Shown piece by piece: positions 2,648 to 62,490 of a stretch of 64,000 nt of DNA. Origin of the DNA: Nitrospinales bacterium (GTDB taxonomy: Bacteria > Nitrospinota_A > UBA7883 > JACRGQ01); the NCBI GenBank assembly GCA_023248535.1, contig JAHFEJ010000004.1:3012-67011 (forward strand), given 5' to 3'. Below the pieces are notes generated by a model. The model saw only the letters and a program-made list of their open reading frames with translations. It was not told the origin of the DNA and searched no databases. The translations under genes were made by a program, and so were the position numbers. The first letter of the stretch is position 1; each line of letters opens with the position of its first letter.

Positions 2648-5600
2648 ATGGATGCGCCCGATTTTTCAGGTTTTGTAAACGAGTTCGTTGAGGAAGCCGA
2701 AGAGCATCTGCAAACCCTCAACGCCAGCCTCCTCCACATCGAACAAAGCGCCGCCAGCGGAGCGGCCAACAAGGAAAAGGTGGATTCCCTCTTCCGCGCG
2801 GCCCACACCGTCAAAGGCCTCGCGGGGATGATGGAGTTCGAGGGAATCGAGCGGCTGTGCCACCGGATGGAAGACATTTTCGGGGAAATCCGCCACGGCC
2901 AAATGCCGGTAACCGCCGAAATCATCGACGCGCTCTTCGCCGCGGCGGATACGCTGGCAAAACTGATCGCCGCCGTGCGTGAAAGCGGCACCGACAAGGG
3001 GGTGCCCACCGGCGCCCCGCTGGAACTCATGAACAAGGCGCTACTCGCCGCAAAAGCGGTTCCCGTTTCCCCCTCAAAAAAAACCAAGGGAAAGAAAAGG
3101 AAAAGGATCGATCCCGCCGATCTGGGCATCTCCCTGGACGCCGCCCTGTTGGATGAAAAAGACCTCGTCATGCTTGAAGACGCGGTGACGGCCGGACTAT
3201 GGATTTACGAGCTGGGCAAGGAATTCACCGGCGGAACGCCCCTCGATAAAATTCACCGCCTGCCGGTCTTCCGCGACATCGAACAGGCCGGCATGCTCAT
3301 CGCCACACTCCCTCCGGTCGAGCACATTCCCGCCGCCAAGGGAACCGTCAATTGCCGCTTCATCTTTAGTTCCGACCTCCCCTCCGGCAGTGTACGCGAC
3401 ATTTTTCTTGATCCGGTGACGGTGCTCAAGGAAGGATGGACCGCGAAGCCCCCTCCTTCCGCAGTTGCCGCGGAGCCGGAACCGGAAGCGCCGGAACAGC
3501 GGCCGCTTAACGAAATCCTGGCGCAGTTGGATGAAACGCTGATCCAGGAATTCGTGAAGTCCGCCTTGGAGCAGCTTGACCAGATCGATCTCGCCCTGCT
3601 GGAACTCGAACGGGATCCGGGGGATTCTTACATCGCCATGGAAATCCATAACGGCTTCCGCTCCTACAAGGGAAAAGCGGCCCTCTTCGGTTTTAATAAG
3701 ATCGCCCTGCTGGCGGGCAAACTTGACGGCATTTTCGGGTTGATCCACAACCAGCGGGTCATCGCCGGAACCGAACTTTTCGAAGCGGTTGCCATCAGCG
3801 CCGAAAAACTGCGGCGCCTGCTGGAAGAGCTCAAACTGCGCAAAGAAACCGGCATTTCGGTGAATGACGACCTGAAACGGCTGGACGCCCTGGTTGGAAA
3901 GGCAAAATGGATCCCGGAAGAATTGGGCGCGGTGCTGGCCCAATCGGCGCTGAGTCCCGATGTAATTGCGCAACTGAACGCCGCCGAAAAAGCGCTGATC
4001 GCGGAGGAGTACGAAAAGGGGCGCGCCATCTATCAGATCGTCATCCGCTTCGCCGAAGACGCCTTGAAATCGGGGTACGAACCGCTCTCCATCGTTCCGG
4101 TAATAGGGAAATGCGGCGACATCCTGGTAAGCATCCCCATCATCGACGGGGTGCCCGAAATCTTCCGCTACGAGGCCGACAAGTGGGGCATCGGCTTTCA
4201 CTTCCTTTTCGCCACAAATCTTTCGCCGGAACAGTTACACTCCCGTTTCACCATGCTCCCCCGGTTCATGGAAATTGACCTGCGCAAAGTATTGCATAAG
4301 GAGGCGTCTTCAAAACCTGTCACGGCCCGCCCGGCGGCGGCAGCCCCGGCGAAACAGGTTTCCGCCACGCCAACGCCAAAGTTTGGCGGAGAACGCACCC
4401 ACTTCCCTGAAGAGGCCGCCAGCCGCGGCTTGAAAGAGCCTTCCGCGGCCCGGCTTGAAGAACCCATCCGGCTTGAACGGCGGCAAACCGGGAACTCCCT
4501 TGACGGCTATTCCGCCGAAGATGCGGAAAAGAAACTCAAGGAGAAAGCCGTAAACACCATACGCGTCGATATCGGCCGGCTGGACAAGCTGCTGAACCTT
4601 ATCGGCGAGCTGGTGATAGACCGCACCCGGCTGGAACAATTAAGCGCTGAAGTGCGCAGACAACTGCCAACCAATCCGATCGGCGTTCAACTGGCCCATA
4701 CGAACCAGCTTTTCCAGCGCCACATAAACGACGTGCAGGACATGGTGATGTCGGTGCGGATGGTGCCGATCGGCAACGCCTTCAACAAATTCCCGCGCAT
4801 AGTGCGCGACATGGCGAAATCGCTGAAAAAAAACGTAAACCTGATCATCGACGGCGAAGAGACGGAGCTGGATAAAACCATCATCGAGGAGGTGGGCGAT
4901 CCGTTGATCCACCTGATACGCAACGCCCTCGACCACGGGATAGAGCCGCCGCATGAACGCCGCGCGGCAGGCAAGCCGGAAACCGGCCAGATAACGCTAA
5001 AGGCCTATCACGAGGGGGACACGATCATCATCGAGGTGTCTGACGATGGCCGGGGCATGGACCTTGAAAAAATACGGTCGCTTGCGGTGCAAAAAGGGCT
5101 GCTTGACCCGGATGCCGCCCAGATCAATGAAAAAGAGCTGCTCCAGTTCATTTTCGAGCCGGGATTCAGCACCACCGAGGAGCCTACGATGGTATCCGGG
5201 CGCGGCGTTGGAATGGATGTGGTAAAAAGGAACATCGTCAAACTCAAAGGGCTTATCGACATTTTCTCGGAACAGGGCAAAGGATGCGTCATCCGGCTGC
5301 GGCTGCCGCTGACACTCGCCATCGTCCCCACCCTCATTGTCGGGGTGCGGGAAGAGACCTTCGCCATTCCCCTTTCATCGGTGGCGGAATCGATCCGCAT
5401 AGCCGCGGGGGATATACGTATGGTGAACGGGCGCGAGATGATAACCCTGCGCGATACGGTTTTGCCGCTGGCCCGGCTGGACAAGCTGTTCATGCTGGAC
5501 CACAAGCCGTTGCGCAAAACGCCCCCTCAAGCGCAACAGGGGGGTGCGGCGGAAAAATCCTTTAAGGGCGCGGGCCGGGCGCGGCGTGACTCCGTATTCA

Positions 5601-24396: not shown

Positions 24397-24405
24397 CCTC
24401 TCCAT

Positions 24406-24606
24406 GTCATGCCGGGCTTGACCCGGCACCCAGAAAAATTATCAATGCTTCCCTCAATCGGCCCCTTGGGCCGAGGTACATGCTGAGAGCATGTACCCGC
24501 CGGGCTTCCGGGTGAGTACACAATTCATTGTGTACGCTGGCGCGCCAGCGCCAAGAGAGGTCGGCCCGTACGGGCCGATGTACCCAATAAATTGTGTACC
24601 CACCCA
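24406..24606. mobile_element. MITE-like element, family A (left hairpin TIR + REP-palindrome core; right TIR missing)
   Basis: GTCATGCCGGGCTTGACCCGGCACCCAGAAAAATTATCAATGCTTCC matches the TIRs of the copies at 45822, 53352 and 62347; followed by palindromes GTACATGCTGAGAGCATGTAC, GTACACAATTCATTGTGTAC, TGGCGCGCCAGCGCCA, GGCCCGTACGGGCC, GTACCCAATAAATTGTGTACC. Confidence 0.5.
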
Positions 24607-45670: not shown

Positions 45671-45821
45671 CCGGTGGGTGCAGGTTCTCAACATATACAT
45701 CGGCCCGGCGGGCTTGGAGAGTTGCCGCTGGCGCGGCAATGTCACACAGGAATGTGAGACCTGCTTCCCATGGTGGGACACGCATTCTTGCGTGTCATCG
45801 GCCCGGCGGGCCGATTGCGAT
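45671..45821. repeat. REP-like palindrome cluster
   Basis: Successive GC-rich palindromes GGCCCGGCGGGC, GCCGCTGGCGCGGCAA, GACACGCATTCTTGCGTGTC, GGCCCGGCGGGCC sharing motifs with the RAYT-flanking REPs. Confidence 0.5.
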
Positions 45822-45994
45822 GTCATCCCGCACTTGATGCGGGATCCAGAAACATTATCAAAGCTTCCCCCATCGGCCCGCCGGGCCGACGTTCCCTTGG
45901 CGCGGTGCGCCAATGTACCCAATAAATTATGTACCTACCGGGAGGGGGAAAGTTTGGACAATATTTCTGGGTGCCGGGTCAAGCCCGGCATGAC
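45822..45994. mobile_element. MITE-like element, family A, complete copy (two ~45-bp hairpin TIRs flanking a REP-palindrome core)
   Basis: Left TIR GTCATCCCGCACTTGATGCGGGATCCAGAAACATTATCAAAGCTTCC; right TIR (reverse complement) GTCATGCCGGGCTTGACCCGGCACCCAGAAATATTGTCCAAACTTTCC; core GGCCCGCCGGGCC / TTGGCGCGGTGCGCCAA / GTACCCAATAAATTATGTACC. Confidence 0.6.
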
Positions 45995-46042
45995 AGAGAA
46001 GGAATTGGCGCCGCATTGCCAACTGCCTCGATACCCGTTATA

Positions 46043-46339
46043 ATGGGAGCCGTGATAAAGTCGTTTGCCGGCAAAATGACCCGGAAGCTTTTCGAGGAAG
46101 GAAAGGCCGAAGGTCATTTACGGGCAATCGAGGCGGCGGCGAAAAGAAAGCTCGCCATGCTTCACTTTGCGCGGCGGCTTGCCGACTTGCGCGTGCCGCC
46201 GGGAAACAGGCTGGAAGCCCTTAAAGGCGGCAGAAAAGGACAATTCAGCATCAGGATAAACGACCAATATCGAATCTGCTTTCGTTTTGATGAAGGAGAA
46301 GGCAATGCTTACGATGTTGAAATCACCGATTATCATTAA
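46043..46339 (+). CDS. higB: HigB-like toxin (plasmid-maintenance killer protein, RelE/ParE superfamily)
   Basis: 98 aa MGAVIKSFAGKMTRKLFEEGKAEG...NRLEALKGGRKGQFSIRINDQYRICFRFDEGEGNAYDVEITDYH matches the HigB/killer family (FKxxxxxKxF ... RLEALKG...QFSIRINDQYRICFRF...DVEI.DYH). Confidence 0.85.
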   Translation: MGAVIKSFAGKMTRKLFEEGKAEGHLRAIEAAAKRKLAMLHFARRLADLRVPPGNRLEALKGGRKGQFSIRINDQYRICFRFDEGEGNAYDVEITDYH

Positions 46340-46351
46340 GGAAATGAAGCC

Positions 46352-46651
46352 ATGAGCGGTATTGGATACGCCATTGAACATCCGGGGGCGGTGCTGTGGG
46401 AGGAGTACCTTCAGCCGATGGGGATAACCCAAAGCCGCTTCGCGCGGGAGATCGCCATCAGCTTTACGCGAGCCAACGAACTGATAAACGGGAAACGGGG
46501 CTTTACGCCCGATACCGCCCTGCGGGTGGCGAAATATCTGGGCACGTCGCCGGAATTCTGGATGAACTGGCAAGCGGCCTACGATCTCCAGCGCGCCCGC
46601 AAAGAGCACGCCGGCGACTATCGCAAAATAAAAACCGTCACCGCCGCGTAA
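46352..46651 (+). CDS. higA: HigA-family antitoxin (XRE-type HTH)
   Basis: 99 aa; IEHPGAVLWEEYLQPMGITQSRFAREIAISFTRANELINGKRGFTPDTALRVAKYLGTSPEFWMNWQAAYDL is the canonical HigA/VapI HTH antidote pattern; 12 nt after higB. Confidence 0.85.
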   Translation: MSGIGYAIEHPGAVLWEEYLQPMGITQSRFAREIAISFTRANELINGKRGFTPDTALRVAKYLGTSPEFWMNWQAAYDLQRARKEHAGDYRKIKTVTAA

Positions 46652-46770
46652 CCCTCCATCGGCCCGCCGGGCCGATTGTCTTGGTAGGTGCGACATTCCT
46701 GTCGCACATTGGCGCAACGCGCCAACCGTGTCGGCCCAATGGGCCGATGTACCCAATGAATTGGGTACCC
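46652..46770. repeat. REP-like palindrome cluster abutting the higA stop
   Basis: GGCCCGCCGGGCC, GTGCGACATTCCTGTCGCAC, TTGGCGCAACGCGCCAA, GGCCCAATGGGCC, GTACCCAATGAATTGGGTAC: the same palindrome types as in the RAYT-flanking arrays. Confidence 0.55.
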
Positions 46771-46780
46771 ACCGGGAAAG

Positions 46781-46810
46781 GCAGGGGCAGGTTTGAAACC
46801 TGCCCGTACA
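46781..46810. repeat. Palindrome GGGCAGGTTTGAAACCTGCCC (copy 1; second copy at 47939-47967)
   Basis: Near-identical 25-29-bp hairpin plus flank (…CCCGTACA(A)GCATCCG) present twice, bracketing the low-GC cassette. Confidence 0.45.
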
Positions 46811-46837
46811 GCATCCGGTCCACCAAGAACAAGAAAG

Positions 46838-46864
46838 GGCCGGCCTGGCGGGCCGCTTTTCTTC
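46838..46864 (+). terminator. Possible rho-independent terminator (GGGCCGGCC-loop-GGCCGC + TTTTCTT)
   Basis: GC-rich stem followed by a T-rich run ~190 nt downstream of higA; weak assignment. Confidence 0.3.
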
Positions 46865-47185
46865 GTGGCACGATCCGGCTTTGCCCGAGAGAACGCGGAT
46901 CGCATATTCAGGGTTATACCCGCAATTGACCTGAAATTCCGACAGTATCCCCGCCCCTTCTTCTTCCCCTCTGCCTGCCGGCACCGCTCCCGGATCGCCA
47001 CAAAGTATTCTTTCCGCTATACTTTCCCCATTTTCCGCGTTCCTTTTGGTTACATTTAATATGAGGCAATTCGTAGTATAAATAAACCAGCTATTTGACA
47101 TCTCAAAAAGTAGCATTCCGAGGTACAATCAACATAATCTAAAGAGTCTCTGCTCTTCCTTTGATTTCATCGGAGGTGTCTGATC

Positions 47186-48006: not shown

Positions 48007-48050
48007 AGCTTTGAAAATATTTCTGGATCCCGGGTCAAGCCCGGGATGAC
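48007..48050. mobile_element. Solo right-end TIR of MITE family A, 7 nt downstream of the rel stop
   Basis: AGCTTTGAAAATATTTCTGGATCCCGGGTCAAGCCCGGGATGAC: its reverse complement GTCATCCCGGGCTTGACCCGGGATCCAGAAATATTTTCAAAGCT matches the family A TIR consensus. Confidence 0.5.
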
Positions 48051-48057
48051 AAAAAGA

Positions 48058-53338: not shown

Positions 53339-53351
53339 CCGCGCCTTTCAT

Positions 53352-53498
53352 GTCATGCCGGTCTTGAACCGGCACCCAGAAATACTTTCAAAACTTCTTG
53401 GCGCTACGCGCCAATGTACATGCTCTCAGCATGTACCCACCCCGGGGAAAAGAAAGTTTTGAAAATATGTCTGGATCCCGCATCAAGTGCGGGATGAC
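53352..53498. mobile_element. MITE-like element, family A, complete copy filling the gap between the convergent secA and topoisomerase B-subunit stops
   Basis: Left TIR GTCATGCCGGTCTTGAACCGGCACCCAGAAATACTTTCAAAACTTC; core TTGGCGCTACGCGCCAA + GTACATGCTCTCAGCATGTAC; right TIR ...AAAGTTTTGAAAATATGTCTGGATCCCGCATCAAGTGCGGGATGAC. Confidence 0.65.
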
Positions 53499-53502
53499 AG
53501 CT

Positions 53503-55392: not shown

Positions 55393-57655
55393 GCGCCACC
55401 CCTATCAGTTTCTTTTTGCCGGCGCCGCCGTATACGCGGCCGGCTTGCGCCCGCTGCCCCATATCCATGCCGCCCACTTTTTCCACCGCGTCTTTGCCGC
55501 CGTCGAACATGAAGGTGAGGGTGTTTGCCTTGTTCACCACTTTGGCGGCGATGATAACGTCCTTTGCGTCCATCTTGATGAGCTTCACCCCGGCGCCGGG
55601 GCCGGTGAGAAGCGGAATTTCCTCCACGGGGAAGAGCAGCCCCTTGCCGCCATTGTGGGCGGTATAGAGGTACTGGCCGTCCACCGGCAATACGTCGAAC
55701 ACGGCGTTGTCTTCCTTCACGTTGGCGTATTTGCGGCCCGCCTTGGTGGTTTCGGTAACGGCGGCGCGGGCAAAGCGCAGTCCCATGCCGTTCTCCAGCA
55801 CCGCCACGTATTCCCCTTTCGGCTCCGCCCCGCTCCGGATGTGGTCGAAGTGATCCACCGCCACCACCCGCTCGCCGTCGCCGAACTTGAAGAAGCTCTG
55901 CACCGGCTCGCCGAAGCCGGTGGTGGAGGGGAGGTCGTACGCCTTCACGGTGTACACCTTTCCGGCGGAGGTGAAAAAGCCGATGTGCTCGGCGGTATCG
56001 GCCGGCAGCACTTTCAACAGCGCGTCCCCTTCCTTGAAGCGGAGCTGCCCTTCGTTCGGCTCGTTCTTCATCCGCTTCACCCAACCGTTGCGGCTGATGA
56101 CGACGAAGCACTTCTCATGCTGGATGAAATCGTCGGCGGTGAAAGCCTCTTCCTCCGCCCCCGCTTCCAACCTGGTGCGGCGCTTGTCGCCGTATTCGTT
56201 CTTCACGTCGAGCAGCTCTTTTTTCACCAGGCCGCGCAGCTTCACCTTGCTCTTCAGGATGTCCTCTATCATCTCGCGGCGGACCTCCAGCTCGGCGGCC
56301 TCCAGCTTGATCTTCTGTATCTCCATCGAGACCAGCGCGGCCAGCCGCAGGTCGAGGATGGCGTTGGCCTGCACCTCGTCCAGCCGGAAGTGCTTCATCA
56401 GCCCGGTGCGGGCCTCATCGCGCGTTTTGCTTTTGCGGATGATGGCGATGGCGGCATCGAGGTCCTTCAGCACGGTGGTGAGCGCGCGCAGGATGTGCAG
56501 CCGCTCCAGGATATTGTTCAGCTCGTGGCGCAGGCGCTTTTCGGTGGTCTCCACGCGGAAGGCGATGAAGGTAAGCAGCATCTCGGCCAGGCCCATGCGG
56601 CGCGGCGCCCCTTTGGGGTCGAGCGCGGTCATGTTGACGGCGAAGTTGTATTCCAGATCGGTGTACTTGTAAAGGAACGCCATGATCTTGGCGATGTCGG
56701 AACCGGCCTTCGGTTCCAGCACCACGCGGATGACCTCGGTGCTTTCGTCGCGCACGTCGGCCAGCTGCGGCAGCTTCTTTTCGATGATGAGACCGGCGAT
56801 CTTTTCCACCAGCTTCGCCTTGTTCACGGTGTAGGGGATGCTGGTGATGACGATCTGCTGCTTGCCGCGCTTGGCGTCCTCCACCTCGTACTCGCCGCGG
56901 ATGCGGATGGAGCCGCGCCCCTCTTCGTAGATGGCGCGCAGCTCTTTTTTGGTGGCCAGCATCGTCGCGCCGGTGGGGAAATCCGGCCCCTTGATGTATT
57001 TTTGCAGTGCGGCGGTGTTGAGTCCGGCGTCGTCGATAAGCGCCACGAGGGCGTCTATCACCTCGTTCATGTTGTGCGGCGGGATGTTCGTCGCCATGCC
57101 GACCGCAATGCCGGAACTTCCGTTCACCAGCAGGTTGGGGAAACGGCTGGGCAAAAAGACCGGCTCTTCCAACGTGGCGTCGTAGTTGGGGCGGAACGGC
57201 ACCGTATCCTGCTCTATCTCCTTCAGCAGCTCCATCGCCAGCGGGCGGAGGCGCGCCTCGGTGTAACGCATGGCGGCGGCGGAATCGCCGTCGATGGAGC
57301 CGAAATTCCCCTGCCCGTCGATAAGCGGATAGCGGAGCGAGAAATCCTGCGCGAGGCGGACGAGCGTATCGTACGCGGCCTGGTCGCCGTGCGGGTGGTA
57401 TTTGCCCAACACCTCGCCGACGATGGCGGCGGATTTGCGGTAACGGTTTTCGGGCGTGAGGCGCATCCGGTACATGGCGTAGAGGATGCGTCGGTGAACC
57501 GGCTTGAGGCCGTCGCGCACATCCGGCAGGGCGCGGGCGGCGATGGTGCTAACGGCGTAGCTGAGGAAGCGCTGGCGCAGTTCGCCTTTGAGATCGGTAT
57601 GCTGTATATCGTCGCCTGCTCCGCCCGCGAGCGCAAGTTGTTGTTTCTTACTCAT
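55385..57655 (-). CDS. Type IIA DNA topoisomerase subunit A (GyrA/ParC family; no GyrA-box found)
   Basis: 756 aa; [24 protein letters not shown] with catalytic-Tyr region; beta-pinwheel CTD; no QRRGGKG GyrA-box detected at the start of the CTD; 8-nt overlap with the B-subunit gene, which it precedes. Confidence 0.9.
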
Positions 57656-57753
57656 TGGAGAAAAGAAATAACAGATTTCGCCTTAAAATGGAAGCGGTAT
57701 AAATAGATATATGCGAATTAATGTGTTTTTATTGGTTGAATTCGTCTCCTTGC

Positions 57754-57991
57754 TTGGTGGGTACCCAATTCTTTATTGGTGGGTACCCAATTCATTGGGT
57801 ACATCATGCCACAAGGCAGGACTTTCCCCTTGGCGCTGGCGCGCCAACGTACACATTAAAATGTGTACCTACCCGGAAAAGCCCCTCTCTTGGTCTCGGT
57901 GGGACGGACACTCCTGTCCGTCATCGGCTCGCAGGGCCGACTCTCTATTGGCGCTGGCGCGCCAACGTACACATTAAAATGTGTACCCACC
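57754..57991. repeat. REP array (left flank of RAYT): two repeat units of GGTGGGTACCCAATTC(T)ATTGGGTAC / GGCCGACTCT / TTGGCGCTGGCGCGCCAA / GTACACATTAAAATGTGTACC
   Basis: Ends 4 nt before the RAYT stop; contains the same four palindrome types (P1-P4) as the right-flank array, plus GACGGACACTCCTGTCCGTC. Confidence 0.6.
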
Positions 57992-57995
57992 GGCA

Positions 57996-58487
57996 TCAAG
58001 GCAACATATTTTCATTTACAATCAGCCACGGGTAATCTTGCGGCCTTTCCGCAAGACCGGCACGAACCGCATTCCCCCGTATATACTCATATTTATCCAG
58101 CCATTCATCTTCATTCCGCACTATCCTGTCGTAGGACTCCTTCTGCCAGCAAGAACCGGTACGCTTGAGCAATCTGTTGACCGGGTGCGATGTTTTGCCT
58201 TTTATGGTTTTTAGAATGCCGGTCAGCGAATAAAATAACCCTGCCGCTTTCTCCAGCGGTCTTATCAAAAGATGTATGTGATCGGGCATAATAACGCCTA
58301 TTGAAACATCGTACTTGCTCCGCGCACCTTCAAGTACCGCCAATCGAACAATGTCACGCCCCGCCTCCGGCAACAAAAATCCTTTTGTGCGGAAGGTGAC
58401 AAAGTACCACATGCCCCCTTGCTGCCAATGAGGGAGCTTCCGGTGGGTGATCGTTACATCGGTTGCGGTAATGTTCCGCTTCGGCAT
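57996..58487 (-). mobile_element. REP-associated tyrosine transposase (RAYT, IS200/IS605 Y1 HUH transposase family)
   Basis: MPKRNITATDVTITHRKLPHWQQGGMWYFVTFRTKGF...IMPDHIHLLIRP (HxH/HUH motif) ...YEYIRGNAV (catalytic Tyr region); flanked on both sides by REP arrays; the ORF call extends with a TTG start into the REP, so the ATG at 58487 is preferred. Confidence 0.8.
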
Positions 58488-58512
58488 AAGCCGATGATAA
58501 CATTTCTTCCCT

Positions 58513-58950
58513 GCTCGGTGGGTATCCAATTTTTTATTAGGTGGGTACCCAATTCATTGGGTATATCGGCCCAACGGGCCGACTCTCTCTTGGCGCGTTG
58601 CGCCAATGTACACAATAAATTGTGTACCTACCCGGATGCTCGGTGGGTACCCATTTTAATGGGTACTTCGGCCCAACGGGCCGACTCTCTCTTGGCGCGT
58701 TGCGCCAATGTACACAATAAATTGTGTACCTACCCGGATGCTCGGTGGGTACCTATTTTAATGGGTACTTCGGCCCAACGGGCCGACTCTCTCTTGGCGC
58801 TTTGCGCCAATGTACACAATAAATTGTGTACCTACCCGGATGCTCGGTGGGTACCCATTTTAATGGGTACATTGGCGCAAAGCGCCAAGAAGGTGTCATA
58901 CCTGACGGCATGATGTACACAATAAATTGTGTACCTACCGGGGAAGCGGG
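58513..58950. repeat. Tandem REP array (right flank of RAYT): four ~102-bp units, each a string of four palindromes
   Basis: Unit GCTCGGTGGGTACCCATTTTAATGGGTACTTCGGCCCAACGGGCCGACTCTCTCTTGGCGCGTTGCGCCAATGTACACAATAAATTGTGTACCTACCCGGAT repeats at ~58513 (with a 23-bp insertion), 58638, 58740 and 58842 (last copy degenerate). Confidence 0.7.
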
Positions 58951-58985
58951 AATAAAAAAAGGGGCTTGGGTTGAACCCAAGCCCC
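58951..58985 (-). terminator. Rho-independent terminator of the porin gene
   Basis: Minus strand: GGGGCTTGGGTT-loop-AACCCAAGCCCC followed by TTTTTTTATT, 25 nt after the porin stop. Confidence 0.7.
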
Positions 58986-59010
58986 TTGTATGACGAATTA
59001 AGCGTTCTGG

Positions 59011-60234
59011 TTAGAACACGTATTCGAGCATTACGATCATCTTGCTTTCGAACGGCTTCGCATCGCCGGAGGCGTTGCAGACGTCGATGGTCAGGTCGAC
59101 GTTCTGAGCAACCGCCCACCAGCCGCCGATGAAGGTGGCGGTGTAAGCATTGCGGGTAGCCGCGCCGTTGTCAAACGAACCGAAGCCAGCTTTCAAACCG
59201 GCATGGTGGGTGATGCCGAGTTCGGCGCCAACGCTGAAACCTTTGTTGTCTTTGCCGGTTGCGTTGTAGATCGACTGCGCATCGCTCTTGACGGTTGCGT
59301 AGTTGGCGATCACTTCCAGGCTCATGCCGGCAACCGGCATCTGGAGCTGGCCATCGACCATCATCGAGTCGGACGCAATTTCGGTGTCGGTGCCGGCCGC
59401 GGTGCCGGGGAAATTGCGGATCTTGGTTTTGCCGCTGGTCAAGGACACGCCAACCGCCAAGTCCATATCGCCGATCTTCGGGGTGATCGCGGCGCGGATG
59501 TAGTTGGAAAGGTTGAAGCCGACGTCGTAGTTACCACCGGTTGCGGTACCGCTGAAAGAGGATGCCGCCGGAGCAAAGAGGGAGACGTTCACGAAGAACA
59601 TGTCGCTGCCGGCGAAGAAGCCAAGGCCCTGCGCACCGTTGTTCCACGGACCGTTCATCGCGGCGCGGGGGTGCCACTGGGTGACTTCGTAACCGAACTG
59701 ATTCCGCTGGTTACCGGTCTGGAAGAGCTCCATACCGTACGCCGGGCCGGCATCAGCAGTCGAGAACACGGTCAAACCGCCGCGTACCCCGCCAAAGTCT
59801 TTGGAGAAGACGAACTTGTTGTTCGGCATATGGCCGTCGCCGGAGAATTCGTTCAACGCGCCCATGTTTTCGCCAACGCGGCCGCCGATCAGGATCGCCG
59901 CCTCGTCGGGGATGTTCCACTCGCCGTACTTTTTGCCGGTTGCTTCGGGGCTCTGGTTGACGAGGCGGATTTTCACGACCACCGCGGCGTTGAGAACCGG
60001 GGGAAGGGAAAGGCCGTCATCCTGGATAAGATCCTGCGCGGCCTGGGTAAAGCCGCCCAGTTTGAAATCGCGGCCGAAAGCGTTGAGCTTCGGGATGTGC
60101 TGGTAATGGCACGAGTAGCAGGGCACGCCGACCTGGCGCGCGAAGGCCGGAACGGCTTCCGCTTTGGTGGGGGCCACGATCGCGCCAACAAGGGCAACCG
60201 CCGCCGCAAGGAACAACATTGAAAACTTCTTCAT
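59011..60234 (-). CDS. Outer-membrane porin-like beta-barrel protein
   Basis: Signal peptide MKKFSMLFLAAAVALVGAIVAPTKAEA; ~380-aa mature region with alternating beta-strand character; C-terminal ...MIVMLEYVF (terminal Phe); own strong terminator. Confidence 0.65.
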   Translation of the reverse strand: MKKFSMLFLAAAVALVGAIVAPTKAEAVPAFARQVGVPCYSCHYQHIPKLNAFGRDFKLGGFTQAAQDLIQDDGLSLPPVLNAAVVVKIRLVNQSPEATGKKYGEWNIPDEAAILIGGRVGENMGALNEFSGDGHMPNNKFVFSKDFGGVRGGLTVFSTADAGPAYGMELFQTGNQRNQFGYEVTQWHPRAAMNGPWNNGAQGLGFFAGSDMFFVNVSLFAPAASSFSGTATGGNYDVGFNLSNYIRAAITPKIGDMDLAVGVSLTSGKTKIRNFPGTAAGTDTEIASDSMMVDGQLQMPVAGMSLEVIANYATVKSDAQSIYNATGKDNKGFSVGAELGITHHAGLKAGFGSFDNGAATRNAYTATFIGGWWAVAQNVDLTIDVCNASGDAKPFESKMIVMLEYVF

Positions 60235-60743
60235 TTAAAAACCTCCTCGAATAATTCCTGTCTAAGGATTAACCACTGTTTAATGCGCCTGTTTGTTCTT
60301 CAGTTTTCCGGCTGGCCCAGGCTTGCCGCACCGCAACAACGCCCACCTCCTTATTGCTTCAATTTTTTTTTACTGTTGCTTTTAAGGCTCCCTCTCCCTT
60401 TAACAATCGGCACACCGCGCTTGGCGCAACGTGCCAGTTGGTAACTAAACCGCAAACTTGAGCGATACTACCAAAATTACCAAGGCCCTGTCAACTTTTT
60501 AAGGGGCTTGCATAATCCAATCCGTTACCCAAAAGTGGCAGGCCGTTCAAAGGCTTTATTCCCCCCCGGGAATCAAAGCCAAGCCATCCGGGGCGGATAC
60601 CCGTTTTTGCGGCATCCGGCATGGGGATAAACTTCCCTTTTTCGTGCGCCCTCACCCCTTTAGGCCATGCACACGGGTGCAGTATACCGTAATTACCGTC
60701 AAAACCGCATGAAAAAACTTTGGGGTGGTTAAAGGGGGCAGCA

Positions 60744-60846
60744 AACCACAGAGCCACAAAGACACAGAGAAATCTGTTTAGTAAAGGCACAATAAAATAT
60801 GGCAAGAGGCTTGTTTTGCAACTCTGTGTCTCTGAGCCTCTGTGGT
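60744..60846. repeat. Long imperfect hairpin repeat, family B, copy 2
   Basis: AACCACAGAGCCACAAAGACACAGAGA ...loop... CTCTGTGTCTCTGAGCCTCTGTGGT; arms ~85% identical to copy 1 at 45563-45657. Confidence 0.5.
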
Positions 60847-60883
60847 CATATCCATACACAGAAATGCCGCAAGGCATGACCCC

Positions 60884-61040
60884 TCTTGGCGCTAACGCGC
60901 CAATGTACACAATGAATTGTGTACCTACCCGGAAAAGACCAGCCGGATGCTTGGTGGGTACCCAATTTATTGGGTACATCGGCCCGCAGGGCCGACTCTC
61001 TCTTGGCGCTGGCGCGGCAAATCGGCGACAGAGTGTCGCC
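60884..61040. repeat. REP-like palindrome cluster upstream of folC
   Basis: TTGGCGCTAACGCGCCAA, GTACACAATGAATTGTGTACC, GGTGGGTACCCAATTTATTGGGTAC, GGCCCGCAGGGCC, TTGGCGCTGGCGCGGCAA, GGCGACAGAGTGTCGCC. Confidence 0.55.
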
Positions 61041-61070
61041 GCTACCTGGGGGAGAGGGTATAGTACGGGG

Positions 61071-62315
61071 ATGTTTGAAGGGAAGGGCTACCGGCGGATA
61101 CTGGCGGAACTGTACGGGATGCAGCGGTTTGGCATACGCCCGGCGCTGGCCCCCACCGTGAAATTCCTGCGCGCGCTGGGAAACCCCCACAAGAAGCTCC
61201 GCTGTTTCCATGTGGCGGGCACCAACGGCAAAGGCTCGACCACCGCGATGACCGCCGCCTCGCTTGCGGCGGCGGGGTACAAAACCGGCGCGTATTACAG
61301 CCCGCATGTGAGCGATTTCCGCGAGCGGTTCCTGATAAACGGCGCGTTCGTCCCGCGAAAAGAGATTTATGAAACGCTGCGATGGATGGGGGAGGCTTAT
61401 GACGCGGCCCTGAAAGGGGGGGACGCCCCGCGATACCTCACCTTTTTCGAGTGGAGCACCGCGCTGGCCTTTTGCCTTTTCGCCCGCGCCAAGGTGGATG
61501 TGGCGGTGCTGGAAACGGGGATGGGGGGACGGTTCGACGCCACCAACGTGGTAAGGCCGGAGGTATCGGTCATCACCAACATTTCGCTGGAGCACACGGC
61601 GATACTGGGAACCAGCGTGGCGGAAATCGCGGCGGAAAAGGCGGGGATCATAAAAAAGGGCCGGCCGGTTGTCTGCTGCGGCACGGATGCGGCGGCGAAC
61701 CGGGTTATCGCGGCGGCGGCGCGGACGAAAAAATCGGCCGCGCTGTTCATCGGGCGGGATTTCACGGTATCGGGCCGTGGCCTGTTCACCGCCGCCGACG
61801 GTACGCGGCTGCGCCTCGCGCCCGCGATGCGCGGAACGTTCCAACTGCGCAATGCGGCGCTGGCCGCGCAGGCGTTGCTGGCCCAAGAACGGTTTGCGGT
61901 AACGCCGGAGCAGATCGAACGGGGCGTGGCGGCGGCGCGGCTGCCGGGGCGCTTCGAGATGGCGCGGCGCGGCGGCAAAACGGTCATCTACGATGTGGCG
62001 CACAACCCCGCCGCGATGAAGGAATTGGCCAAGAATCTGCGCGCCAGCGGAATAAAAAAATGCGCGTTCCTGCTGGGCATACTGGACGACAAGGATTTTT
62101 CCGCCATGCTGAAGATACTCAAGCCGCTGGCCACGGCGGTTTACTGCATCAAGCCGGACGCCAAGCGGGGGCTGGACGCCGGACGGCTGGCCGCCGCCGC
62201 GCGCACGATGGGGATCGACGCAGTTGCGGGCGCGCCGCGGACGCCGCCTTCCATACTCTGCGTGACCGGCAGCTTCACCACGGTGGAAGCGGGAAAGAAA
62301 CTCTTCGCGCGGTAG
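61071..62315 (+). CDS. folC: Bifunctional folylpolyglutamate synthase / dihydrofolate synthase
   Basis: Mur-ligase P-loop HVAGTNGKGSTTAM; FolC blocks (YYSPHVSDFRERF, GGRFDATNVV, TNISLEHT); start at ATG 61071 (the ORF call 60720 runs through repeats). Confidence 0.88.
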   Translation: MFEGKGYRRILAELYGMQRFGIRPALAPTVKFLRALGNPHKKLRCFHVAGTNGKGSTTAMTAASLAAAGYKTGAYYSPHVSDFRERFLINGAFVPRKEIYETLRWMGEAYDAALKGGDAPRYLTFFEWSTALAFCLFARAKVDVAVLETGMGGRFDATNVVRPEVSVITNISLEHTAILGTSVAEIAAEKAGIIKKGRPVVCCGTDAAANRVIAAAARTKKSAALFIGRDFTVSGRGLFTAADGTRLRLAPAMRGTFQLRNAALAAQALLAQERFAVTPEQIERGVAAARLPGRFEMARRGGKTVIYDVAHNPAAMKELAKNLRASGIKKCAFLLGILDDKDFSAMLKILKPLATAVYCIKPDAKRGLDAGRLAAAARTMGIDAVAGAPRTPPSILCVTGSFTTVEAGKKLFAR

Positions 62316-62346: not shown

Positions 62347-62490
62347 TGTCATCCCGGCCTTGAGCCGGGATCCAGAAATATTTTCAAAGCTTTCTCCATC
62401 GGCCCGGTGGGCCGACACTCTTCAGCGGCAGGCGTGCCAATTTAAGAAAGCTTTGATAATGTGTCTGGATTCCCGCCTACGCGGGAATGA
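62347..62490. mobile_element. MITE-like element, family A, complete copy between the convergent folC and NHL-protein stops
   Basis: Left TIR GTCATCCCGGCCTTGAGCCGGGATCCAGAAATATTTTCAAAGCTTTC; right TIR GAAAGCTTTGATAATGTGTCTGGATTCCCGCCTACGCGGGAATGAC; short core with GGCCCGGTGGGCC. Confidence 0.65.

Follow-up and report, generated by a model that had tools for sequence, protein, structure and literature searches.

The stretch analysed here (64,000 nucleotides of contig JAHFEJ010000004.1 from the Nitrospinales bacterium assembly GCA_023248535.1, hereafter the window) contains one gene for a REP-associated tyrosine transposase (RAYT, or TnpA-REP), bordered on both sides by arrays of repetitive extragenic palindromes (REPs). 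The locus is very probably a REPtron, i.e. one RAYT, fixed in the chromosome, with clusters of the REPs that are cognate to it on both sides. The definition of the REPtron and the dependence of the system on a GTAG tetranucleotide come from earlier work (PMC3333891), as does the description of the GT[AG]G foot (PMC6006769). A preliminary description made from the sequence alone had placed a Y1/HUH transposase between two repeat arrays, and the features do lie at those positions and distances (4 nt from the gene on the left, 25-29 nt from its ATG on the right).

The RAYT gene and its protein

The gene (57996-58487, minus strand; stop codon 57996-57998) encodes a protein of 163 aa, with an HUH motif (H70-I-H72) and a predicted catalytic Tyr135. 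The start is placed at the ATG at 58487, the MPKRNI N-terminus being conserved in the 163-aa homologues P0002 and P0003 (75-78% identity). A TTG-extended version of the open reading frame (ORF), up to 58529, enters the right repeat block, and the NCBI-derived copy (P0001) is a truncated, unnamed protein of 138 aa.

Profile searches agree with the transposase assignment first proposed. The NCBIfam equivalog model NF047646 (REP_Tyr_transpos) matches residues 20-154 with 80 bits (E 1.6e-22), while the IS200/IS605 model NF033573 gives 16.1 bits against a cutoff of 55. The match is borderline at the curated cutoff, yet the two scores clearly separate RAYT from IS200. The sole meaningful sequence match in the PDB is 4er8 (E 1.2e-5), a structure of E. 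coli TnpA-REP in complex with a REP hairpin; in the alignment, HIH (70-72) stands opposite the E. coli HMH, and Tyr135 opposite Tyr115. An AlphaFold (AF2) model built from an alignment of 39 homologues (pLDDT 91.5, pTM 0.87) finds the same structure as its top Foldseek match (4er8_A, E 3e-9, TM 0.70, root-mean-square deviation 2.6 Å), at an identity of only 18% in the structural alignment, followed by the ISDra2, IS200 and IS608 transposases. The alignment is invariant at T31, M67, H70, H72, K96, W114, D120, Y135 and N139, and the clade consensus of its tyrosine motif is YIxxNP. For class-2 TnpA-Y1 proteins, Quentin et al. (2018, PMC6006769) give the signature Y---NP and conservation of a W(Q/E) motif; the protein has WQ (W114-Q115), but reads YIRGNA at the tyrosine. 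Many homologues are named 'REP element-mobilizing transposase RayT' or 'REP-associated tyrosine transposase' in their source records, and a PHROGs search matched only an unannotated family. Sequence and predicted fold both assign the protein to the RAYT branch of the Y1/HUH enzymes. An N-terminal RKLPHWQ motif, and homologues in Nitrospinota, Desulfobacca, Binatia and Planctomycetes, point to a possible further RAYT subclass.

The enzyme has its HUH/Y1 fold and chemistry in common with the IS200/IS605 family (IS608, ISDra2), and both have gene-flanking hairpins with a 5' guide tetranucleotide. An autonomous insertion sequence (IS) of that family, with an ordinary TnpA and with the flanking hairpins as subterminal ends of an element that moves whole, would account for the fold, for the hairpins on both sides of the gene, for the weak Pfam Y1_Tnp match, and for IS200, ISDra2 and IS608 being next best in the structural search. 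We nevertheless consider it very improbable. The IS200 model stays at 16 bits where the RAYT model reaches its cutoff. IS200/IS605 elements are multicopy, move as a unit and are often accompanied by tnpB, whereas this gene has no adjacent tnpB (its neighbours are genes for topoisomerase IV/gyrase A and for a porin-like protein), occurs once within the 64 kb, and sits at a conserved locus, with unchanged chromosomal neighbours across lineages at a synonymous divergence (dS) of 0.81. Its flanks, moreover, are variable arrays of repeats that are also dispersed without any gene.

REPs around the gene and across the window

The REP is 25 nt long, and consists of a 5-nt foot (5' GGT[A/G]G) followed by a hairpin with an 8-bp stem and a 4-nt loop. 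The repeat unit of about 93 bp contains two REPs placed tail to tail with their feet outward, separated by a spacer of about 43 nt that holds two GC-rich 7-bp hairpins, P2 (TCGGCCC-NNN-GGGCCGA) and P3 (TTGGCGC-NNN(N)-GCGCCAA), joined by CTCTCTC. The preliminary description had counted four distinct palindromes, P1 to P4; P1 and P4 turn out to be one REP family in opposite orientations (GGTGGGTACCCA..TGGGTAC on the plus strand and GGTAGGTACACA..TGTGTAC on the minus strand). What repeats is a pair of inverted REPs around a structured spacer, similar to a REPIN (REP doublet forming hairpins) or BIME (bacterial interspersed mosaic element), and not a set of four independent palindromes. The string of four hairpins was upheld by folding: a 109-nt unit forms four separate hairpins as single-stranded DNA (ssDNA; -30 kcal/mol, z = -7.3), and as RNA the feet pair as well, closing a multi-branch structure.

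Comparison of 26 distinct foot-plus-hairpin sequences shows GGT.G to be invariant and compensatory (double) changes to occur at all 8 stem pairs; the set was pre-selected for at least 6/8 pairs, such that the diversity of pair types, and not the pairing percentage, is the independent evidence. In P2 and P3 the stems are conserved across dispersed sites and the loops vary freely. GTAG and GTGG feet occur side by side, with GTGG as common as GTAG. Work on Marinomonas ties this difference to the choice of cleavage site, which the foot guides (PMC8266576). Set against that guide model, the 9-nt linker CGGATGCTC, which connects successive 102-bp units head to head, reads crosswise, with CT before GTGG and CC before GTAG.

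The right array begins at 58513-58517, 25-29 nt from the RAYT ATG. Its element nearest the RAYT start is a half-REP, GGTGGGTATCCAATT (58517-58531, plus strand), located 23 nt upstream of the first full REP. Three near-identical REPIN units with a 102-bp period follow (58540-58836; units 58540-58632, 58642-58734 and 58744-58836), each with the order REP (plus strand, GTGG foot), P2 TCGGCCCAACGGGCCGA, CTCTCTC, P3 TTGGCGCGTTGCGCCAA and inverted REP (GTAG foot). In the fourth, variant REPIN (58846-58939), the plus-strand REP (58846-58870) and P3 (58872-58888) precede an imperfect hairpin, CATACCTGACGGCATG, which replaces P2, and an inverted REP (58915-58939). Tandem Repeats Finder reports 58540-58870 with period 102, 3.2 copies, 96% matches and a score of 613; no other tandem repeat in the window comes close to it in strength. 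The tandem had been described as four copies of 102 bp; its period stands, with near identity limited to three units. The end formerly given as 58985 falls inside the intrinsic terminator (58959-58987, minus strand) of the upstream 407-aa gene, which lies outside the REP array.

The left array opens with a half-REP, GGTGGGTACCCAATT (foot and left arm; 57756-57770, plus strand), duplicated 22 nt upstream of a full REP. The first left REPIN (57778-57873) contains a plus-strand REP (57778-57802), an imperfect hairpin ATGCCACAAGGCAG, a P3-type hairpin (57830-57847) and an inverted REP with a GTAG foot (57849-57873). The second (57898-57991) has unlike ends: a GGTGG+GACGGACA-type hairpin (57898-57922), P2 (57924-57940), CTCTCTA, P3 (57948-57965) and an inverted GTAC-type REP (57967-57991), whose foot closes the array 4 nt short of the stop codon of the RAYT gene. 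Full REPs thus number 4 on the left and 8 on the right, each flank with one half-REP in addition, and their feet are GTGG or GTAG. On either side of the gene the nearest REP foot faces the RAYT, as it does in the related loci L001 and L024; in L019 this holds for the upstream side only.

Half-REP duplications (foot and left arm, 3-8 T-rich nucleotides, then a full REP; spacing 18-23 nt) are found at 57756-57802, at 58517-58564 and in L001 at 1403-1444, confined to RAYT flanks (two in the window, one in L001). They may have been left behind by slippage or strand transfer at the loop of the hairpin.

The 102-bp block could also have arisen independently of the RAYT, by replication slippage or by unequal homologous recombination between adjacent REPINs, with its copy number perhaps an outcome of assembly. 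This origin is plausible, if not quite probable: the units follow one another strictly head to tail with 96% identity, the homologous site of a relative holds one unit only, a second assembly of the same sample is one unit short, and the numbers of tandem BIMEs vary per locus among E. coli strains (PMC3333891). On the other hand, private single-nucleotide polymorphisms in the units (58754, 58801) argue that at least three of them are real, and the half-REP duplications, restricted to the RAYT flanks of the window and L001, hint at strand transfer or slippage tied to the locus. Amplification of this kind is in any case compatible with a REPtron, the E. coli model being one of 'transposition/recombination followed by local amplification' (PMC3333891).

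The flanking palindromes belong to the same families as the dispersed copies. The REP, P2 and P3 are shared with other intergenic sites, and the at least six such sites first claimed correspond to six repeat areas of the window (about 24.4-24.6, 45.7-46.0, 46.65-46.78, 53.35-53.5, 60.86-61.05 and 62.35-62.42 kb). This recurrence far exceeds chance. The 12-nt head motif GGTRGGTACMCA occurs 20 times in the window against 0.37 expected, and GGTRG+hairpin sites (GGTRG, then a hairpin of 8/4/8, 9/3/9 or 8/3/8 type, no more than one mismatch being allowed) also number 20, against 0.31 in shuffled sequences (maximum 3). Twelve of the 20 sites lie in the RAYT flanks, the other eight across six further intergenic regions (at about 24.6, 45.8, 46.7, 53.4, 60.9 and 61.0 kb). 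Pairing at the 939 GGTRG sites of the window and its relatives is bimodal, with a background at 2/8 pairs and 54 sites at 7-8/8. Nine complete doublets are present in the window (57778-57873, 57898-57991, the four of the right array, 24511-24604, 46683-46773 and 60953-61046), and unlike end hairpins are seen in three of them (57898-57991, 46683-46773 and 60953-61046) and in a REPIN of L019 (5611-5704).

The dispersed arrays are mostly situated at the 3' ends of genes or between convergent genes, and complete modules occur in either orientation. Between convergent genes at 24458-24604, P2 and a GTACATGCT-type hairpin precede a full REPIN of opposite orientation, consisting of a REP (24511-24535), P3, GAGAG, P2 and an inverted REP (24580-24604). 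The mosaic at 45772-45939 contains a GGTGG+GACACGCA hairpin, P2, a copy of another repeat (T3, described below), P2, P3 and an inverted REP (45915-45939). At 46659-46773, P2 is followed by an unlike-ended REPIN with a GGTAG+GTGCGACA hairpin (46683-46707), P3, P2 and an inverted GTAC-type REP (46749-46773). The copy at 53398-53441 has P3 and an inverted GGTGG+GTACATGCT hairpin, with an inverted T3 pair around it (53351-53499). Upstream of folC, at 60865-61046, a hairpin ATGCCGCAAGGCAT, P3 and an inverted REP (60905-60929) precede a REPIN (60953-61046) composed of a REP (60953-60977), P2, CTCTCTC, a P3-like hairpin and an inverted GGTAG+CGGCGACA hairpin (61023-61046); a lone P2 hairpin lies beside a T3 repeat downstream of folC (62399-62415).

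T3 is a third dispersed repeat of about 50 nt, TGTCATSCCGGNCTTGANCCGGSAYCCAGAAAWATTWTCAAAGCTT, with an internal hairpin that has compensatory variants. Its copies lie at 24405-24436, 45821-45852, 53351-53382 and 62347-62378 on the plus strand, at 45964-45995, 48020-48051 and 53468-53499 on the minus strand, and in L016 (1443..1657). Inverted T3 pairs enclose P2/P3/inverted-REP modules at 45821-45995 and 53351-53499, an arrangement of 150-175 bp resembling a miniature inverted-repeat transposable element, and a T3-bracketed arrangement is also present in a Nitrospinales metagenome-assembled genome (MAG). T3 has no Rfam match, and an Rfam search of the whole window at gathering thresholds returned zero matches. 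At permissive E-values, applied to the locus and one dispersed site, MIR1222 (34 against 90 bits) and AaHKsRNA22 (31.5 against 39.8) came up and were rejected as chance matches to generic hairpins. In a scan across metagenomes, the P2-spacer-P3 core turned up on a single soil contig that lacks flanking REPs, an uninformative result.

Several long ORFs cross the REP arrays (60720-62315 and 58419-58913 on the plus strand, 46118-47128 on the minus strand) and are a likely source of mis-annotation. One is the TTG-extended folC frame, the true folC start lying probably near 61080. The ORF at 58419-58913 (164 aa) was examined as a coding frame through the array and rejected. For it to encode a repeat protein, an idea prompted by the open frame across the array and by a period divisible by three (102 nt, or 34 codons), is next to impossible: its TTG start lies within, and antisense to, the RAYT gene, Pfam gives only sub-threshold unrelated noise, the modules occur both ways round in many intergenic contexts, and each segment is palindromic with compensatory stem changes.

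Conservation of the locus and the weight of the evidence

The RAYT occupies the same place in relatives. In L001 a RAYT of 78% identity lies downstream of the same porin-like gene and terminator, with one REPIN before it, and a half-REP and a REP after it at the contig end. A 75%-identical RAYT (P0003 contig) is found in the order folC, porin-like gene, RAYT, as in the window, and ENA assembly ERZ27280116 has a 66-kb contig that encodes an identical protein. Between the window and L001 the ratio of nonsynonymous to synonymous divergence (dN/dS) is 0.15, with dS 0.81, and in spite of this divergence the 25-nt REP GGTAGGTACACAATTTATTGTGTAC is identical in both. Because dN/dS is 0.15, the gene is intact and the catalytic residues are invariant, the RAYT is under purifying selection. 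As far as these sequence comparisons go, it is a stably placed, selected, single-locus gene with a REP held constant, which is the behaviour described for RAYTs (PMC3333891, PMC5581495). The REPtron interpretation gains further support from the orientation of the REP heads, which point at the gene from either side, from the conserved locus and from this dN/dS.

The RAYT might alternatively be a stranded relic, with the repeats kept for host roles that need no enzyme, such as mRNA 3'-end protection, termination or binding of nucleoid proteins. The mostly 3'-end or convergent placement of dispersed arrays would suit such roles, as would the stable GC hairpins P2 and P3 with their freely varying loops, and REPs do persist in E. 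coli strains that lack tnpA-REP (PMC3333891). This alternative is improbable, the intact gene, invariant catalytic residues and low dN/dS all indicating a gene under selection, and a REP that does not change at a divergence where synonymous substitutions approach saturation agrees with ongoing recognition or homogenisation.

More distant RAYTs (46-55% identity) each have their own flanking palindromes. L019, from the same sample, has a tetranucleotide correlation with the window of 0.95 (range within the window, 0.91-0.97) and carries a second RAYT, 55% identical, surrounded by GTAG+GTGCGACATTCCTGTCGCAC REPs with the same P2/P3 spacer. The flanks of this RAYT (3774-3856 and 4001-4432) have GTGCGACA.. 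stems, a REP type that also occurs in the window at 46683-46707. In L024, from the same metagenome, a RAYT of 47% identity is flanked by GTAG-footed REPs with the stem GTACACACG.. (1-238 and 734-904).

A different arrangement is seen in a subclade of 52-55% identity (P0005, P0006), where L026 (1-205 and 701-787) and L017 (4567-4703) have inverted repeats of at least 50 nt with a GGTACGACAGGCG.. palindrome and feet pointing away from the gene. This resembles an association with terminal inverted repeats (TIRYT-like) and not a REPtron, and is not used here as support. Next to the RAYT locus, the 407-aa gene (59011-60234, minus strand), followed by the strong terminator at 58959-58987, encodes a secreted protein with an N-terminal CYSCH (haem-binding-like) motif; it has no Pfam match, and is syntenic with the RAYT in two relatives.

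In a scan of 185,579 species for the REP 25-mer (one genome each, in a set of species representatives that excludes the source genome), 15 loci were found, all in three Nitrospinota/Nitrospinales-like MAGs: Nitrospinales nzgw267, a groundwater Nitrospinota MAG and 'bacterium WY2.bin26'. These loci carry REP-P3/P2-inverted-REP modules, doublets included, and no RAYT lies within 8 kb of them.

Several observations weigh against the REPtron interpretation. The NF047646 score exactly equals the cutoff of 80 bits, and the Pfam Y1_Tnp score of 21.5 bits falls just under the gathering score of 23. The tyrosine motif, Y135-IRG-N139-A (YIRGNA), has Ala for the Pro of the class-2 Y---NP, with the Asn conserved. 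Copy number and the single-copy status of the RAYT are known for 64 kb only, and the closest species-level MAG has just about 14 exact REP matches, which do not establish a high genome-wide abundance of REPs. Because the hairpin types share a foot and one of them flanks a second RAYT, the pairing of enzyme and REP is ambiguous. Finally, contig k141_3033711 of ERZ27280116 (L023, same sample) carries an identical RAYT with exactly one 102-bp unit fewer, and the tandem copy number may therefore be polymorphic, or beyond the resolution of short reads; the 'four copies' may be three or may vary.

Mechanism, comparison with known systems and implications

All enzymatic steps, the REP types acted on and the origin of the tandem array are inferred, the enzymatic steps by analogy with the TnpA-REP proteins of E. 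coli, Stenotrophomonas and Marinomonas (PMC3333891, PMC3479197, PMC8266576); foot-dependent binding and cleavage of ssDNA REPs has been demonstrated with the enzymes of E. coli, S. maltophilia and Marinomonas alone (PMC3333891, PMC8266576). The enzyme would bind a folded REP on ssDNA, reading the GT[A/G]G foot and the hairpin. His70 and His72 would coordinate a metal ion, and Tyr135 would cleave at a dinucleotide beside the REP with formation of a 5'-phosphotyrosine link. Rejoining of the strand would then copy or move REP/REPIN modules in trans, leaving the gene stationary. By the same analogy the RAYT may 'propagate' its REPs, as the preliminary description assumed. The tandem block upstream of the gene, with its three to four 102-bp units, would represent local amplification of one module, whether by the enzyme, by slippage or by unequal recombination.

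An extended -10-like box, TGTTATCAT (58494-58502, minus strand), a possible promoter noted by manual comparison only, ends 6 nt before the RAYT ATG. Similar boxes occur as TGCTATCAT in L001 (888-896), as TGTTAATAT in L024 (about 224-232) and as TATAAT in L019 (about 3917-3922), each 6 nt from the start codon; the pattern includes TGnTATCAT, and a Shine-Dalgarno sequence is absent at all four loci. A strict sigma-70 consensus scan of 57600-59100 flagged no promoter. The placement of the boxes suggests that the RAYT mRNA could be leaderless, starting just inside the proximal REP foot.

A bolder proposal, which we regard as doubtful, is that the mobile module is a four-hairpin REPIN of interchangeable parts (a P2-P3 core with variable ends), combined with a leaderless RAYT mRNA whose -10 box is conserved in the four loci. 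The terminal hairpins comprise at least seven stem types, always with a GGT[A/G]G foot and 8/4/8 geometry, and the P2-P3 core is common to REPINs that flank at least two RAYT paralogues (55% identical) in the same sample. If the parts are interchangeable, RAYTs would read the foot and the hairpin shape rather than the stem sequence, and several RAYT/REP families would swap parts or cross-mobilise.

Among known systems, the E. coli K-12 REPtron, in which tnpA-REP (yafM) is flanked by BIMEs (Ton-Hoang et al. 2012, PMC3333891; structure 4ER8, PMC3479197), is similar in that its one Y1/HUH gene stays at a fixed locus and has inverted REP pairs at its borders, which vary in number and are in part amplified in tandem; the REPs have a 5' GTAG-type foot and are also dispersed between genes, and its TnpA-REP is the best match in both sequence and fold. 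It differs in its REPs, which are imperfect palindromes of 30-40 nt with a bulge needed for activity, whereas those of the window have perfect 8-bp stems and a 4-nt loop. The foot here is GGT[A/G]G, with GTGG as frequent as GTAG, the spacer holds two extra hairpins where E. coli has L/S linkers, and the organism belongs to a different phylum.

The Group 3 (subclass 2.5) RAYT-REPIN systems of Pseudomonas fluorescens and Stenotrophomonas maltophilia (PMC3116915, PMC3686654, PMC8266576) likewise have short, perfectly palindromic REPs that form inverted doublets (REPINs). Each REP family there has one RAYT, several RAYT/REP families can coexist, inheritance is vertical, and the DH.H and WQ motifs are similar. 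Their tyrosine motif is YI[VI]ANP in place of YIRGNA(V), and the REPINs of the window have a longer, structured spacer and frequently unlike ends. A parallel to this spacer is provided by the CGTC-3 dimers of Agrobacterium tumefaciens, inverted REP pairs with two small stem-loops in between (Di Nocera et al. 2013, PMC3733652). Those dimers are CGTC-tagged and lack a dedicated transposase, whereas the present ones are GT[AG]G-tagged and flank a RAYT, and here one P2/P3 spacer serves REPINs with different terminal hairpins.

The modular features described here are variations on a known theme and not a new kind of system, and the working principles of RAYT/REPIN are unchanged by them. Pseudomonas and Stenotrophomonas are known to harbour more than one RAYT/REP family side by side, and REP dimers whose spacer forms two stem-loops are on record (PMC3733652).

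For annotation, the locus explains assembly breaks at such sites, the truncated and unnamed 138-aa call, and the long spurious ORFs across arrays. No case of a domesticated transposase that is inherited vertically and has a resident population of non-autonomous repeats is better documented than the RAYT/REPIN systems, and to our knowledge nearly all work on them has concerned gamma-proteobacteria. The locus, as a probable REPtron, would extend a system known from E. coli and Pseudomonas, in a clean example, to an uncultured groundwater Nitrospinota-like lineage of an under-sampled phylum. It would also provide a natural experiment, in which an invariant foot is combined with many stems, GTAG and GTGG feet are adjacent, a structured spacer is shared, and one module is locally amplified.

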